NCBI GenBank assembly: GCA_965217585.1
Contig: OZ244561.1
Coordinates: 2,784,001 to 2,848,000 of the forward strand
Source of the DNA: Candidatus Latescibacterota bacterium
Lineage (GTDB): Bacteria > Latescibacterota > UBA2968 > UBA8231
Reading direction: 5' to 3'
Length of the DNA stretch: 64,000 bases
This document shows positions 40,812 to 48,836 of the stretch, piece after piece. Numbering within the stretch: position 1 is the first letter of the stretch; the number at the start of each line of letters is the position of its first letter. A program made the position numbers and the translations under genes. A model generated the notes under the pieces. The model searched no databases. It was not told the origin of the DNA and worked only from the letters and a program-made list of their open reading frames with translations.

Positions 40812-41492
40812 TTACTGAGGTTTAGTGAGGGTTGCCATATGCTCTTCTAGAGCTGATCGTAGTGCAACGCAGAACACGTAGAAGAGACTATTCCCGTTAC
40901 GGTTGCAAATCGAGTTTCGTGCACGCTGCGCGTCAGCATAAGACATTGGGTTATCACCCGTCGGTCCGTAGATGAACTCCTCAATGAAGAGCTTTCGTTC
41001 CTCGGTAAGACTCCTATGATCGAGACCGAGGACCTCAATCGTGGTTATGGCTTCGGTTCGATTGTTAACTGCCTCAATCTCACCATTAAGCTTGAATCGA
41101 AAGACCTGTTCGCAAGTAGGCTGAAGCGGAGACACGAATTCGGCACCATCGTTATCCCACCAACAATCCTTAAGCCGTGCGCCATAGCGAGGCTGTCCTT
41201 TCACATCGTCTCGTGGGAAACACGCTACCAGATTGGTGTAGTCCAAATCAGATCCATGCAGGTCCTCCCGGCAGCGACTCCGTGGCTTGATATGTTCCAC
41301 ATGCGATGAATTCTTGTCGATTCGACGCATCGTATAGGCACACAACCCGCCTTGGTCTGCAATCATAGCCACCAATATTAGCTCCTTATGGGCCGAAAAC
41401 ACCTCGCGCCAATCAGACTTGTTCGTTCCCGCAACTTCAGCACACCACTCGGAATAAGAGTGCGGGCATCCGGTTTTCTGGATGTACTTCAT
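40812..41492 (-). CDS. ptuB: HNH endonuclease, PtuB/TIGR02646-like
   Basis: DQGGLCAYT..RI, HVEHIKPR and LDYTNLVAC motifs; overlaps the ATPase stop. Confidence 0.75.
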   Translation of the reverse strand: MKYIQKTGCPHSYSEWCAEVAGTNKSDWREVFSAHKELILVAMIADQGGLCAYTMRRIDKNSSHVEHIKPRSRCREDLHGSDLDYTNLVACFPRDDVKGQPRYGARLKDCWWDNDGAEFVSPLQPTCEQVFRFKLNGEIEAVNNRTEAITTIEVLGLDHRSLTEERKLFIEEFIYGPTGDNPMSYADAQRARNSICNRNGNSLFYVFCVALRSALEEHMATLTKPQ

Positions 41493-42742
41493 TCGGCCAA
41501 AATCTCCAGTCGAGCTATGCGCGCTTCAAGAACGGACCACTCTGGTAGGTCAAGCCCGTTCTCCTTAGCCTCTGAGATCACGGCACGTGCTTTCTCGAAG
41601 GTTCCTTCCCCAATTAAGCTCTCAACAGATTGAATGGCTGCCATAGCAGCCTCGGGTCGGTCATCGGCCTCCATGAGGTGGCGTAGGATCCAGTTTGAAT
41701 CCATCCCAAGGCTGCGGTCCGGACGGATGATTCCACTAGGATCCAAGAGGTGAACCTGATCGGGCTCGACGGACGCCACGACCTGCGGCGAGTGAGTTGT
41801 CGCGATGAACTGGCAGCGCGGAAAAGTGGTGGTCAGGTTGTGAATGATCTGGCGCTGCCATTTGGGGTGTAGATGCAGGTCAAGCTCGTCAATCAGGACG
41901 ACCGCTTCGGCTTCGGAGGCTGGGTCGGTGAAATTGGGGTTGGCCTGAGCAAATCGCCGGGTCAGGTCCAATATGAAGGCCAGTATCCCTCGTTCGCCAT
42001 CCGAGAGTTGCTGGACAGGAATTGTCGTGGAGTCCCGATCGATCAAGATCTGCGGGTTATCCTCACCTCCCAGCCGCAGATTCGCGTAGCCTGGAAGGAA
42101 GCGCCTCACGGCATCCTCGCAGGCGGCCAGCTTGTGGCCGACTGCTGGATCCTCGTTGCGCATGGATTCTTGGCGCTTCAGCCAATCACCGAAATCGACG
42201 AGCCGAAGCTCGCGCTCCAAGAAAGCATCCGCGAACGCCGTTTCTACACCTCCGGCAGCGAGACCCTTTCGCGGACCCCGCTTAGACGGGATGGCTCGGT
42301 TGGTCGAGAAAAGCACTGCAAGAGGTCGCCCGTCAGGCTCGTGGTCGGATACCGGTAGCGGCGGATCACCGATGAAATCCGCCACTTCCGGCGTATTGTG
42401 AACCTGCTCCCGAGGCATTCCCGCCTTCGCCTTCTGCGGAACACTCGTCTCACGTGGTTTGTGGAGGAGGTAACTGTGCGCTCGCTTGCCAATCCGAACA
42501 TCGCATTCGACGATCATATCTTTGGCTCCGATACGGATGTCGTCGACGGAGAACGCTTCGACCCGGCCTCGGAGCTTGTTTGCCTGTTTCACCGCCGCCG
42601 ACAGGCAAACGCACAGTGCATCTAGAACGCTCGTCTTCCCGACTCCGTTAACCCCGACGATCAGGTTGAATCCCGGCTGGAATCGAAATTCGGCGTTCTC
42701 AATTGCGCGGAGGTTGACGAGCTTCAGCGAGGTAATTTCCAT
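41489..42742 (-). CDS. ptuA: ABC/AAA_21 ATPase, PtuA-like
   Basis: GVNGVGKT, LSDGE, IDELDLHLHPKWQ and TTHSP motifs. Confidence 0.8.
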   Translation of the reverse strand: MEITSLKLVNLRAIENAEFRFQPGFNLIVGVNGVGKTSVLDALCVCLSAAVKQANKLRGRVEAFSVDDIRIGAKDMIVECDVRIGKRAHSYLLHKPRETSVPQKAKAGMPREQVHNTPEVADFIGDPPLPVSDHEPDGRPLAVLFSTNRAIPSKRGPRKGLAAGGVETAFADAFLERELRLVDFGDWLKRQESMRNEDPAVGHKLAACEDAVRRFLPGYANLRLGGEDNPQILIDRDSTTIPVQQLSDGERGILAFILDLTRRFAQANPNFTDPASEAEAVVLIDELDLHLHPKWQRQIIHNLTTTFPRCQFIATTHSPQVVASVEPDQVHLLDPSGIIRPDRSLGMDSNWILRHLMEADDRPEAAMAAIQSVESLIGEGTFEKARAVISEAKENGLDLPEWSVLEARIARLEILAE

Positions 42743-46090: not shown

Positions 46091-46477
46091 TCAAGGCTCC
46101 GAGAGGGATTCGACCTTTTCTTCAAGCCACGAGTTCAATTCGGTGAATCGGAATGAACTAGCTTCGAACATCCGCATGAAGAAGGCGTATGCCTTATCGT
46201 TGTCGCAGTTGATGAAGTGGCCGTTCATGCGCAGAAAGGTGTCGGTGACGAAAAAGGCGACCCGCTTATTGCCGTCCACGAATGCGTGATTGTTGGCTAG
46301 GCTCTCCATGAGAGCAGCCGCTTCTTGGATAAGCCCGTCGTAGTATCCAAGCTGGGGGCGCATGAGCGCAGAGGCGAGAGCACCTTCATCGCGGAGGCCC
46401 TGTGAGCCGCCAAATGCACTAATCAGGGCGTTGTGCATGGCGATGACTTCCTCGATGGTTGGGAAGTCATGGGTCAT
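46091..46477 (-). CDS. doc: Doc/Fic family toxin
   Basis: NHAFVDGNKR motif; GLRDEGAL.SAL.RP. Confidence 0.9.
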   Translation of the reverse strand: MTHDFPTIEEVIAMHNALISAFGGSQGLRDEGALASALMRPQLGYYDGLIQEAAALMESLANNHAFVDGNKRVAFFVTDTFLRMNGHFINCDNDKAYAFFMRMFEASSFRFTELNSWLEEKVESLSEP

Positions 46478-46704
46478 TTGGCCAACAATTCACCTAGGCG
46501 ACGATTTTTCTCGACACTGGCCTGAAAATGGGCCATAACCGAGGCCCGGCGCTTTTCCTGAGCGCGGTTTTCAACGTATTCCCGCATGGCCTCTTCCAGC
46601 ACCGCTTGGAAATGACGACCTTCCTTGCGGGCAATTTCGCGCACTGCGGCCAGCAACTCTGGCGAAGCCTGACTAGAAAATTTCTCTCGTAGCACAGCCA
46701 TCAC
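46474..46704 (-). CDS. Putative antitoxin (ribbon-helix-helix-like)
   Basis: Small ORF overlapping the doc start; KFSSQ...REIARKEGR....LEEAM. Confidence 0.7.
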   Translation of the reverse strand: MMAVLREKFSSQASPELLAAVREIARKEGRHFQAVLEEAMREYVENRAQEKRRASVMAHFQASVEKNRRLGELLAK

Positions 46705-46724
46705 TATACCCCCTTTTGTATCGT

Positions 46725-46765
46725 TATATAGAATTGTGGGAGCAATGTGTCAAGAAATATCTTGA
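46725..46765 (-). promoter_or_regulatory. Sigma70-type promoter and palindromic operator of the TA pair
   Basis: Minus-strand TTGACA (46748-46753), 17 bp, TATATA; palindrome TCAAGAAATATCTTGA at 46750-46765. Confidence 0.5.
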
Positions 46766-46782
46766 TAGAAATGGGCAGAAAG

Positions 46783-47216
46783 CGTCGCAGAGCACCGCGA
46801 GAACCCGGACTGCGACGAGTGCGCGTGACCGTGCGAGGCCCGGCTGAGTTCCGCGCTGATTATGGCAGGGGCACGGCACCGGCCCGGCGGGTGTGGGGCG
46901 GTACTGATTAAATCCACATTCCCCGTCTAACTACGGGAGCCTCCGCGCTCGTCGAGCGAGCTTTGGCAGAACCCGGGTCTATTCACGGGGGGATACACCG
47001 CGCCCCTGCTGAGAATGGCGAACGGAAGAGACGCGAAGCCCTGTTGCTGATTCGCTGAGGAGCTTCCGGTGCTGAGTGGTTAGCCGCTATGTGGTTGAGC
47101 GGCTTTACCGGATAATTGGGTTATCATCCCTGAGGTCGCGCGTTACAGTGCGCGCCGCGTCTGGGCTATGCGCCGTCACCGGCGCAGTCGCACTTGCTTC
47201 CCTGTCTCTTCCGTTC
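46783..47216 (-). ncRNA. Candidate multi-domain structured RNA downstream of the DIP1984-like gene
   Basis: No ORF in the track. 13-bp closing stem 47020-47032/47204-47216, 12-bp stem 46865-46876/46998-47009, 8-bp stem 46783-46790/46810-46817, internal hairpins including a GUGA tetraloop, six UCAGC motifs. Confidence 0.65.
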
Positions 47217-47225
47217 TAGTTGTCT

Positions 47226-47762
47226 TTACTGTTCGTCAGCATATTCCACCTCTACCTCGAACGACGCGGCGCGGATCTGCCGATTGAGCTGGCGGAACTC
47301 GACGCGCGCCTCGTCGAGACGGGTGCGGCAGTCGTCGTAGGGCAACTCGTTGTCTTCGACGATGTCGCGTTCCTCTTTGTGGAGGACCCGCTCGTACGCG
47401 GAATCGACGACTTGGGTGTGTAGTTCTCCGAGGCGGTCGTTGAGCGCTTTGCGGGTCTCGAGGGCCTCAGTGAGGCTCATGTCGTCGCCCCCGTGTTCAA
47501 CGCGGTGCTCGAAGTTGGCACGCTGGATCGCGGCGTTCAGCTTGCGGCGTTTGAATTCGAGGGTGCGCAACTGGTCGCGTGCCTCGGAGACGCTGAATCC
47601 AGGTGCTGGCCGGCGCGAGAAGTCGTTGTCTCGACGGGGGAACAGATCTCGATTCTGGCGCGCCTCGGGCAGGCAGTCGCGCAGCGTCTTGATGCGGGCG
47701 TCGTACTCGCCGCGCAGTTCGAGGGCTTCGTAGAGTCTGATGGTATTTCTGGCTTCGGTCAT
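47226..47762 (-). CDS. DIP1984/septicolysin-like (DUF6847-like) coiled-coil protein
   Basis: Two-fold internal repeat L.EAL..R......I/L..L ... L...I..ANF/ASF; strong AAGGAGGTGA RBS. Confidence 0.7.
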   Translation of the reverse strand: MTEARNTIRLYEALELRGEYDARIKTLRDCLPEARQNRDLFPRRDNDFSRRPAPGFSVSEARDQLRTLEFKRRKLNAAIQRANFEHRVEHGGDDMSLTEALETRKALNDRLGELHTQVVDSAYERVLHKEERDIVEDNELPYDDCRTRLDEARVEFRQLNRQIRAASFEVEVEYADEQ

Positions 47763-47921
47763 ACCTCACCTCCTTCTAGTTTCACCGGGAGATGAGTCGA
47801 AATTCGAGGGGACGTAGAACAGTCGCAACAGTTCAGCGACTTTTTTTGCGTGCGGGGGGAAAATTGCAATGCCGAAGAGCTCATTTGAGGGCAAAGAAGC
47901 TGTGATCTAGAAGAAAGGTCG

Positions 47922-48136: not shown

Positions 48137-48836
48137 TCAATCGAGTTGGGCTAGGAGATCCTCGATGGGTTCATCGCCAGGCCATGTGCCCGCAAGCTCA
48201 ATAGGGTCAAAGCTCCCGATTTGCTTGCGTTGTACCGAGAACAGGTTATGCGATTTCTGGACCTCTATTGATGGCATTTCTTCGAAAACGACATCCTTTT
48301 CCAGCCGACCACTAATCCGGCGAGCCTCGATCAATCGCGGCTGCCCATTGGCCTTGAAATGCACCATTCCCTCAACGGTGGTCTGCTTGCCCCATAGAGG
48401 ACGCAAAGCCTCTACACTCAATGACGCGTCTAGCCGTCCAAAGAGTGCTGACTTCTGGCTCACTAGAAGGCGAAAGCGACCATTACCATGTTTGATCTCG
48501 ATGTTTGATCTCGTCAAGCCTGCCACTTACGATGAAAGACCTTGGAGTCGGGATGTCATTCAACCGCTCTTTGGCGTATGTGCAAGTAATGTCGTCCAGC
48601 GCGAATTGCCCATGCGCCGTGCCTTGAGGGATCATTTCATAGCGCACACCAGCAACTCCAGCCGCTTGCCTGAACTTGAGAATCGCTTCGAGAACCGAAC
48701 TGTCGAAATAGTCTCCAATTGGATTGTCGGTCTGGGTCTCATTGATCGATTGAGCGACCAGATCGAGCGCAGTTTCGTCTTCTTTCAGGCCGCTGATGCG
48801 GAGTTGGTAGTGTTGTGTTTTCATGGCGGGGCTCAC
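48137..48836 (-). pseudogene. Frameshifted hypothetical protein with antitoxin-like C-terminus (WPGDEPIEDLLAQLD)
   Basis: Two ORFs joined by a 13-bp tandem duplication ATGTTTGATCTCG at 48488-48513. Confidence 0.6.

Follow-up and report, generated by a model that had tools for sequence, protein, structure and literature searches.

Within 64,000 nucleotides (nt) of a Candidatus Latescibacterota genome (contig OZ244561.1, positions 2,784,001 to 2,848,000; hereafter the window, in whose coordinates features are given unless a locus is named), the minus strand carries a gene for a 178-amino-acid (aa) protein related to the DIP1984/DUF6847 family (47226-47762), which is followed by a structured RNA of 197 nt, here called domain A (47020-47216). 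Domain A is a conserved structured RNA tied to the DIP1984-like gene and belongs to a class, referred to as class I, which has no entry in Rfam 15. Its pairing with one protein subfamily is near-obligate. The RNA is under more sequence constraint than a stem-loop needs, as it combines invariant unpaired runs, a GNRA loop and a pseudoknot with a 3' half that is fixed and free of helices. Judging from the sequence data, we give a probability of roughly 55% to the reading that both molecules form a ribonucleoprotein (RNP), in which the RNA serves as partner of the protein and which acts as an addiction- or defence-type module; co-transcription, binding and biological role are what we infer for it.

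Gene and RNA in the window

The gene was recognized as an open reading frame (ORF) with a Pfam match, and its product is divergent, internally duplicated and rich in invariant arginine and lysine residues. Its stop codon lies 9 nt before the 5' arm of a 13-bp closing stem, which is formed by GAACGGAAGAGAC (47216 to 47204) and GTCTCTTCCGTTC (47032 to 47020). The first-pass annotation had reported this spacing, next to the 13-bp stem itself, its GAAGC/GCTTC extension and a GUGA-capped hairpin, and all of these are present in sequence and fold as described. It had furthermore assigned the structure to the minus strand, with which folding of the 443-nt stretch 46783-47225 agrees: the minus strand reaches -189 kcal/mol (z = -3.52) and none of 100 dinucleotide shuffles was as good, as compared to z = -1.30 and 13 of 100 shuffles for the plus strand.

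The 443-nt stretch occurs once in its own 7.3-Mb genome, hence it is not a dispersed repeat, and the possibility of a repeat unlinked to the gene, raised along with the first description, gave way to a single-copy segment in tight linkage. Tandem Repeats Finder returned no rows for 46700-47900 and no direct-repeat families were found in 46783-47225. The Rfam search which had likewise been proposed identified no family in Rfam 15: between 46000 and 48600 and at E values up to 10, only two 16-bit chance rows were obtained, both elsewhere, and two further class I loci (L088 and L075) gave no match at the gathering score. A terminator scan found none at domain A or domain B (the stretch following domain A) of the window copy.

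Upstream, a leader with a probable promoter region (47763-47846, minus strand) is kept along with the gene in relatives, and the blastn blocks common with relatives start at 47828-47875. As read by eye, a Shine-Dalgarno-like GGAGG precedes the ATG, and a promoter scan found no sigma-70 consensus before the gene. A hairpin of the form AGTCGC-9 nt-GCGACT, followed by seven T on the plus strand (47821-47847), resembles a terminator that would act on transcripts running antisense to the DIP1984-like gene, and is located inside the leader block conserved with relatives.

Covariation and anatomy of the class I RNA

Fourteen domain-A sequences served to build a covariance model, termed R1. When 26 sequences were fitted to R1, 92.0% of the cells were paired as compared to 79.2% after shuffling, and 26 of the 54 pairs changed on both sides, whereby 0 of 500 shuffles reached the observed values and sliding the partners lowered pairing to 37-44%. 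An independent MAFFT alignment of 34 RNAs gave the same picture, with 92.8% of cells paired (83.8% when shuffled), 17 of 35 pairs compensatory, a value reached by 0 of 500 shuffles, and slid controls at or below 43.5%. Conserved, covarying structure downstream of homologues, the absence of which would have been a refutation according to the first-pass annotation, is thus documented in both the 26- and the 34-sequence alignment.

One-sided changes compatible with G-U pairing are numerous among the class I pairs, and R1 scores 240-258 bits on the forward strand as compared to 17-21 bits on the reverse strand. These data bear on a reading at the level of DNA, according to which the segment would be a recombination or attachment site (attC-like), or a signal of mobile DNA, that is palindromic by chance. 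The surroundings would suit such an element, as in the genus the unit lies at an insertion hot-spot for islands, with variable DNA after 46864 and upstream of 47846-47875, and as many loci sit among short same-strand cassette-like ORFs. However, pairs which are kept via G-U correspond to C-A on the other strand and are weak in DNA, both the fold and the model scores are strongly strand-asymmetric, primary sequence and length are conserved across phyla, which is not the behaviour of attC sites, and the island junctions lie after domain B and not at domain A. On balance, a DNA-level element is regarded as highly improbable.

The RNA is closed by helix P1, the universal core of which (GAGAC...GTCTC, 47028-47208, minus strand) is shared across clades. 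It consists of GGAGAC/GUCUCC plus a lineage-specific lengthening, in the window resulting in 13 bp plus GAAGC/GCTTC. Inside P1, the junction AGCAAG-YGCGA ... AUAGCCCAG is invariant in the MAFFT alignment of 34 diverse RNAs. Helix P3 (47169-47186, minus strand) is a 7-bp hairpin with a GNRA tetraloop, which reads UGCGCCG-GUGA-CGGCGCA in the window; in the 34-sequence alignment, six of its seven pairs change on both sides and 98.7% of the cells are paired, while the alignments contain the loops GUGA, GCGA, GCAA, GAGA and GUAA. The P4 hairpin (47134-47156, minus strand) possesses a conserved CUG-purine-rich loop and four compensatory pairs out of five, the best-covarying of which changes from G-C to A-U (68 vs 34 sequences). 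Next to it, a candidate H-type pseudoknot (47108-47130, minus strand) is composed of Pa (GGG/CCC) and Pb, the latter being GAUA/UAUC in the window and GACG/CGUC in most clades. Three of the four Pb pairs are compensatory with 82.4% of cells paired, as compared to one of three and 92.9% for Pa (34-sequence alignment), and a Pb pair ranks second among all column pairs by mutual information when 115 RNAs are considered.

The 3' half of the RNA (consensus at 47038-47110, minus strand) is A/C-rich and constant in length. Its about 80 nt inside P1 hold CCGG-AAAGC, AAC and several AGC motifs at fixed spacing, and covarying helices were not found in it, with RNAalifold predicting 0 pairs on 115 sequences and mutual information not exceeding 0.29. 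Part of the structure originally described is less widely kept: the AGCCGCT hairpin, which had been reported as nested in ACCGG/CCGGT, is lineage-variable (79.6% paired, mismatched in three close relatives), and the enclosing ACCGG/CCGGT pairing holds in only 63.5% of the cells across clades and is not supported there. The more general statement that there is far more structure than a terminator needs held, considering the constant length, the GNRA loop, the pseudoknot and the invariant unpaired runs.

Both ends of the core could be located in 110 of 115 unique RNAs, and in these 110 the core measures 178-186 nt with a median of 182 nt. The stop codon precedes the core by 5-24 nt in 96 of the 98 unique RNAs with an assigned stop and by 38 and 40 nt in the other two; TAA is used in 52, TGA in 29 and TAG in 17 of these 98. 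A recoding signal is ruled out because all three stop codons are in use, and a protein-coding domain A is ruled out by core lengths that vary by non-multiples of three and by covarying pairs.

Distribution and linkage of gene and RNA

A DNA search of 76 genomes from the window's family revealed 18 strong places with E values of 6.6e-42 or better. In genus g1 the match spans both domains (A and B, RNA positions 2-362) with 91-97% identity, in genus g18 domain A only (positions 10-206) with 81-84% identity; two g1 genomes (G042 and G033) possess domain A without domain B. Wherever domain A was complete in this family, the 178-aa protein was encoded directly upstream. Across a sample of 151 genomes of the phylum, R1 was found full-length in 25, namely in 15 of 63 genomes of its own family, in 9 of 30 of a second family and in the window's genome itself, with 0 of 57 in the other twelve families.

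An RNA-first scan then employed a motif written from the invariant RNA positions alone, which was run against one genome per species and subsequently against metagenome contigs. This yielded 56 genome loci and at least 118 metagenome stretches, 80 loci being among the matches listed, and R1 matched 56 of 56 genome loci and 80 of 80 metagenome loci among the matches listed. The lineages given in the record titles are Ca. Latescibacterota (Gemmatimonadota in the titles of some relatives), several orders of Desulfobacterota, Acidobacteriota, Verrucomicrobiota, Kiritimatiellia, Victivallales, Dehalococcoidales, Aminicenantes and Spirochaetales. All 56 genome loci stem from metagenome-assembled genomes (MAGs) or records of uncultured lineages, which is probably why class I has been overlooked. 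The motif had 0 matches in viral contigs, and tblastn with the 178-aa protein had 0 matches in plasmids and 0 in phages. Carriage by archaea is not claimed: the three contigs labelled as such (L073, L098 and L118, from Thermoplasmata, ANME-1 and Bathyarchaeota bins) measure only 2.3-3.1 kb, L073 matches a Desulfatibia contig at 99% identity over 2.1 kb, and the archaeal labels are probably binning errors.

The 136 loci (the 56 genome loci and the 80 metagenome loci among the matches listed) were inspected for the gene. An intact gene ends no more than 45 nt before the RNA in 106 loci, a count which excludes L093, where the ORF has an internal deletion, and includes L094, the gene of which was found in its genome. 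In three loci an intact gene lies 77-290 nt from the RNA, in 12 the gene is cut by the contig start, in 10 a degraded remnant is left, four have no gene and one offers too little DNA to assess. A gene, whole or contig-cut, is consequently found directly upstream in 121 of 135 assessable loci, with the RNA on the strand of the gene, and the first-pass proposal of a protein-RNA unit is borne out to this extent. Approaching from the side of the gene, the RNA was found beside 16 of 16 intact genes in the window's family. In Desulfobacterota the gene occurs in 4 of 401 sampled genomes, with the RNA in 4 of 4, and three further genomes bring this to 7 of 7 loci. No intact gene without RNA was identified in these gene-first sets.

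Protein and RNA show a shared clade structure. Between phyla, nucleotide similarity spans the region from about the start codon to the RNA 3' end and then stops, and for genus g18 it runs from 47828 to 47020. Neighbours in other phyla are variable and rich in toxin-antitoxin (TA) pairs and transposases. A third constant neighbour gene was not found among the 122 neighbouring ORFs scanned, out of 245 listed.

In the 14 of 136 loci where the gene is degraded or absent, the RNA is nevertheless full-length and high-scoring (e.g., 89-92 bits at L135 and L205), and genome G172 (Spirochaetales) harbors the RNA and no such gene anywhere. The retention of these orphan copies, together with a GNRA loop, pseudoknot and invariant junctions as typical of large functional RNAs, would be in line with an autonomous RNA, i.e., a ribozyme, ligand-binding RNA or sponge, for which the protein would be a helper, a chaperone or co-inherited cargo. 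Opposed to this are the near-obligate linkage to one protein subfamily along with the shared clade structure, the finding that no unlinked second copy of the RNA exists in its own genome, and the fact that no ribozyme or riboswitch family was matched, and we consider an autonomous RNA quite unlikely. The same survival of the RNA beside degraded genes, taken together with no intact gene lacking the RNA, is what would be expected of an antitoxin-like RNA, although the sampling is RNA-first and the gene-first sets are small.

The protein

Pfam family PF20935 (DUF6847) matches the 178-aa protein in two stretches with an E value of 1.3e-11 and 45.1 bits, the cut-off being 27, and the only other Pfam row is a sub-threshold DUF4140. 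Twenty-one homologues match PF20935 as well, about half of them with more than 27 bits. Since both protein halves match the same part of the profile, albeit in different homologues, the data fit an internal duplication. The score against NCBIfam NF038048 (DIP1984) is 41.4 bits and thus below the cut-off of 70, therefore the protein is assigned to a divergent subfamily. Twenty-six homologues from many phyla are 45-86% identical to the window protein, and their alignment contains 41 invariant columns, 12 of which are Arg or Lys. A large protein database holds 479 clusters at E values of 1e-5 or better, and any name given therein reads 'hypothetical protein'.

The AlphaFold2 model of the protein has a pLDDT (predicted local distance difference test score) of 86.6. 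As judged from this model, the only clear fold match is 3KDQ from C. diphtheriae (Foldseek E 6.7e-5, TM scores 0.65/0.74), with an identity of 21-23%. VIA gave Z = 12.8 for 3KDQ as compared to 7.9 for the next row, with 151 residues aligned at a root-mean-square deviation (rmsd) of 3.6. Other searches were dismissed as leads: PHROGs returned weak coiled-coil-type rows only, the best being 'tail fiber' with E 1.1e-4, a profile search of the PDB gave a single row (E 0.84), BFVD gave uncharacterised phage proteins only (rmsd about 10) and the ESM Atlas unnamed clusters only. A PADLOC row of 12.8 bits was obtained for one homologue.

The literature search returned no occurrence of DUF6847, PF20935 or NF038048, found 'DIP1984 family' only as a gene label in one Acinetobacter plasmid paper, never found 'septicolysin' joined with 'small RNA' and met the invariant strings of the RNA in no relevant context. 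Where DIP1984 is named for Acinetobacter plasmids, the passage concerned labels it a putative cytolysin by name alone (PMC5559437). 'Septicolysin' is an old label of the family, which its genes on about 340 small Acinetobacter plasmids still bear.

Expression hints and a possible role in cis

Part of the stretch was detected in eighteen RNA-library runs, the majority of which are metatranscriptomes of sponges; DNA runs contain 0.93-0.99 of its words. Contigs were obtained from four RNA runs of two studies, covering 47031-47219, 47023-47204, 47062-47384 and 47022-47444. Three of these, from both studies, stop at 47022-47031 without a loose end, and two bridge the junction between ORF and RNA; as a weak hint, this would place the RNA 3' end at P1 and is compatible with co-transcription. 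Contig depths over domain A (29.5, 12.7, 19.3 and 195.6, vs 2-5 for neighbours) cannot rank the parts of the gene and are a lead only. Domain B is covered by no contig in runs X1-X3 and, in X4, by a contig (46863-47001) from a relative; a lack of cover carries no weight as evidence.

Contigs stopping at the RNA 3' end would also suit another function of a structure behind a gene, namely that of a 3'-untranslated-region (3'-UTR) element acting in cis only, be it an elaborate terminator, a block to 3' exonucleases or a tuner of translation of its own mRNA, without partner or role in trans. The RNA beginning 5-24 nt after the stop codon, conserved blocks ending exactly at the RNA 3' end and a U-rich tail after P1 in 54 of 110 unique RNAs would all be accounted for by such an element. 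On the other hand, the remaining 56 of 110 RNAs, the window copy included, have no U-rich tail, and a terminator or stabiliser has no need of a constant length of 178-186 nt, invariant unpaired runs, GNRA loop, pseudoknot and a motif-bearing 3' half. Furthermore, an element serving its own mRNA would not account for full-length RNAs kept at the 14 of 136 loci where the gene is degraded or gone, nor for G172, which lacks the gene. Taken together, a purely cis-acting element appears unlikely.

A candidate ribonucleoprotein

The reading preferred here, that of an RNP of protein and RNA, can be phrased as follows. Domain A would be the 3'-terminal part of the mRNA of the DIP1984-like gene, assuming co-transcription, and gene and RNA make up one unit, about 0.75 kb long, which is passed on and spread horizontally as a whole, its hosts being mostly uncultured bacteria from sediment, soil and freshwater or associated with sponges. 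The basic, internally duplicated helical protein is suggested to bind the RNA of its own transcript, which it may grip at the invariant junction, to which the GNRA hairpin is adjacent, or at the unpaired 3' half, along which AGC motifs are spaced. This would result in a stable RNP with the RNA as dedicated partner of the protein, which in turn may be a self-contained module of the addiction or defence type, with the RNA restraining or licensing the protein. Among conceivable roles, such a module is considered the most likely one because TA and defence genes abound where the unit is found and no further neighbour of it is constant.

Several findings weigh against this proposal. The sole fold match, 3KDQ, is itself without an assigned function, Pfam, PDB profile and fold searches found no known RNA-binding domain, and PADLOC gave no match at E up to 0.1 for the window protein. 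The U-rich tails fit a purely cis-acting terminator or stabiliser, and the orphan RNAs fit equally an RNA that works without the protein. The gene-first sets comprise only about 23 intact genes and most loci were found RNA-first, hence the statement that the gene never occurs without the RNA is weakly sampled, and the scan for neighbouring families covered half of the listed ORFs (122 of 245). The RNA-library contigs, finally, are assemblies that show no ends, strand or level, and contaminating DNA is possible.

What makes the proposal worth considering is that DIP1984/DUF6847 has had a solved structure since 2009, the listed release date of 3KDQ, and no assigned function. That the family may act together with an RNA from the 3' region of its own genes is a cheaply testable hypothesis, and among large, pseudoknotted, highly constrained RNAs, ribozymes, riboswitches and RNP scaffolds have often been recognized. 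Should the module prove addictive or defensive, it would represent a TA-like architecture outside the current types.

Domain B and the neighbouring island

Domain B (46864-47019, minus strand) is a genus-restricted conserved non-coding stretch that stands outside class I. Its identity of about 90-96% is confined to the genus, and a single one of its 48 predicted pairs is compensatory. It was found in the loci of 10 relatives, and no copy follows the gene in G042, G033, genus g18 or any other clade. One displaced copy is located at an unrelated locus of genome G053 (L014:1501-1669), where domain B together with the last bases of the domain A 3' arm is 89% identical to the window and no DIP1984-like gene is present. 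Two distal hairpins follow (46783-46858, minus strand), including the 8-bp stem CGUCGCAG/CUGCGACG, which are seen in the fold and lie at the island junction: similarity with most relatives stops at 46864 and continues only in L002, L004 and L005, which share the same Doc island. Domain B and the distal hairpins are local features, confined to the genus and unsupported by covariation. Of the multi-domain RNA that had been proposed at first, domain A stood, being covarying and widespread, while domain B and the 8-bp hairpin fall outside the widespread element.

Read along the minus strand, aspS is followed by two small ORFs, the module and domain B; then come an island of about 9.7 kb, the convergent PhyH and malate synthase G. 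PhyH follows within about 60 nt after domain B in most relatives, which identifies the island as inserted DNA, at the edge of which the module forms part of the backbone. The island contains a ribbon-helix-helix (RHH)-Doc pair, hsdM, hsdS, an AAA_15 ATPase with a 226-aa ORF, and hsdR, and the placement of the module at the edge of a defence island, as first noted, is confirmed by this TA pair, the type I restriction-modification genes hsdM/S/R and the ATPase alongside. The RHH antitoxin (46474-46704, minus strand) and the Doc/Fic toxin (46091-46477, minus strand; Pfam Fic E 1.8e-14, TIGR01550 DOC_P1 E 1.2e-13) are the first genes of the island, lie outside the module and are missing from most relatives that carry it. 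They are preceded by a near-consensus promoter-like TTGACA-17 nt-TATATA (46723-46753, minus strand), which is outside the listing rules of the scan tool. Between hsdS and hsdR (40812-42742, minus strand), a 417-aa AAA_15/AAA_21 (AbiEii-like) ATPase is accompanied by the 226-aa ORF, which has no Pfam family; both possibly are a further defence pair inside the island. The two small ORFs between aspS and the module (129 and 117 aa, overlapping, 48137-48836, minus strand) are present only in some relatives and matched no Pfam, NCBIfam or PADLOC family.

A second element behind canonical DIP1984 genes

Canonical DIP1984 genes are followed by at least 268 nt without an annotated gene in the relatives G003 and G040 and on plasmids of Picosynechococcus, Streptomyces, Mycobacterium branderi, Paracoccus, Psychrobacter, Enterococcus faecium and Acinetobacter baumannii. 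A conserved 3' element of 136-192 nt was recognized therein at 11 loci from at least five phyla (L042:1967-2142; L043:1283-1459, minus strand; L254:1984-2144; L255:1987-2178; also L256-L262). It starts with RGCG-WG-YRYA and includes UAUGCCCAGYAC. The closing stems differ in sequence and stay complementary, for instance over 10 bp in Acinetobacter, over 9 bp in Psychrobacter and over 14 bp in G003/G040; as the stems were chosen by eye, this evidence is weaker than that for class I. The canonical gene was found in 371 plasmid records, 342 of them Acinetobacter, and the element in 345 plasmid records, in none of which a feature is annotated at its place. Rfam held no family for the 11 canonical-gene loci, L257 giving only chance miRNA-palindrome rows.

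A T-arm-like hairpin of the GGGUUCGAGUCCC type lies inside the element (L042, about 2040-2060; also L043, L257, L259 and L261), occurring in Latescibacterota, Streptomyces and Mycobacterium copies, and ARAGORN found no tRNA or tmRNA in L042 and L043. A G-rich run of the type GAGGGUGGG-N-ACGGGG follows 10-30 nt after the element in L254, L256, L257, L259, L261 and L262; it recurs in cyanobacterial and actinobacterial copies and, shortened, in the enterococcal copy.

A model built from the 11 canonical elements, R2, has no match in the window at E values up to 10, and R1 in turn misses the canonical element; the class I RNA and the canonical element share only a UA(U/A)GCCCAG-like run. By eye, domain B and the canonical element have short runs in common (GGGGCG-G-GUAU-CCC and UACCGCC...ACA-CC). 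The idea of domain B as a copy of the canonical-gene element is nevertheless unsupported because R2, like a two-element nhmmer profile, misses the window. It is tempting to assume that the whole DIP1984/DUF6847 family consists of proteins each with its own RNA, class I for the divergent subfamily and the unrelated-looking second element for the canonical genes of Latescibacterota, cyanobacterial, actinobacterial, proteobacterial and enterococcal replicons and of the Acinetobacter plasmids, whereby the two RNAs would have co-diverged from one ancestral RNP, a two-part addiction or defence module with the RNA placed after the gene; this extension is tentative and, on present evidence, somewhat doubtful.

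Comparison with known systems

Among known families, the one closest to the window protein is that of the canonical DIP1984/DUF6847 proteins as represented by 3KDQ, with which it shares the fold and a Pfam match above the cut-off, and behind whose genes a conserved non-coding element is found too. The two groups differ in their RNAs, given that R1 was not detected after canonical genes and the canonical profile misses the window.

Among RNA elements defined by their setting, the class I RNA resembles gene-associated orphan RNA motifs and 3'-UTR-derived small RNAs in its covariation, its constant neighbouring gene family and its probable position at the mRNA 3' end. As compared to typical 3'-UTR-derived small RNAs it is larger, more sequence-constrained and tied to one protein subfamily across phyla. 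Integron attC sites are imperfect palindromes of about 60-140 nt, in which structure and not sequence is conserved and which carry core sites at both ends. Measured against this definition, the class I core differs by its constant 178-186 nt and its long invariant runs across phyla. Retrons are distinguished by their reverse transcriptase, a gene which, like genes for RuvC or HNH proteins, was found neither near the window module nor among the 122 of 245 neighbouring ORFs scanned.

The RNA of OMEGA or TnpB-type RNPs stems from the 3' end of the gene that codes for the protein. The class I module shares with these a structured RNA, about 150-200 nt in size, which begins where the ORF ends or shortly thereafter, and, if co-transcription holds, the arrangement of one transcript and one spreading unit. 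It differs in that its 178-aa helical protein has no RuvC or HNH family match, in that transposon ends and a variable, guide-like 3' segment are missing, with conservation ending at P1, and in that no matches were obtained in the viral, plasmid or phage collections.

Type III TA systems combine a tandem-repeat antitoxin RNA, located upstream of the toxin gene and separated from it by a terminator, with an endoribonuclease toxin of the ToxN/AbiQ type. As in ToxIN, CptIN and TenpIN, a small protein gene stands beside a structured, pseudoknot-containing RNA in one locus, within TA- and defence-rich regions, with patchy horizontal spread and no further partner gene. The type III-like module that the first-pass annotation had considered nonetheless departs from these systems in the three features named above, as the class I RNA lies downstream of the gene and is a single unit of about 182 nt without tandem repeats, and as the protein, with its DIP1984 fold, has no match to a ToxN/AbiQ-type nuclease family. 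The class I module is a member of none of these systems; in its logic it somewhat resembles type III TA systems on the one hand and, on the other, RNPs that take their RNA from the 3' end of the protein gene.

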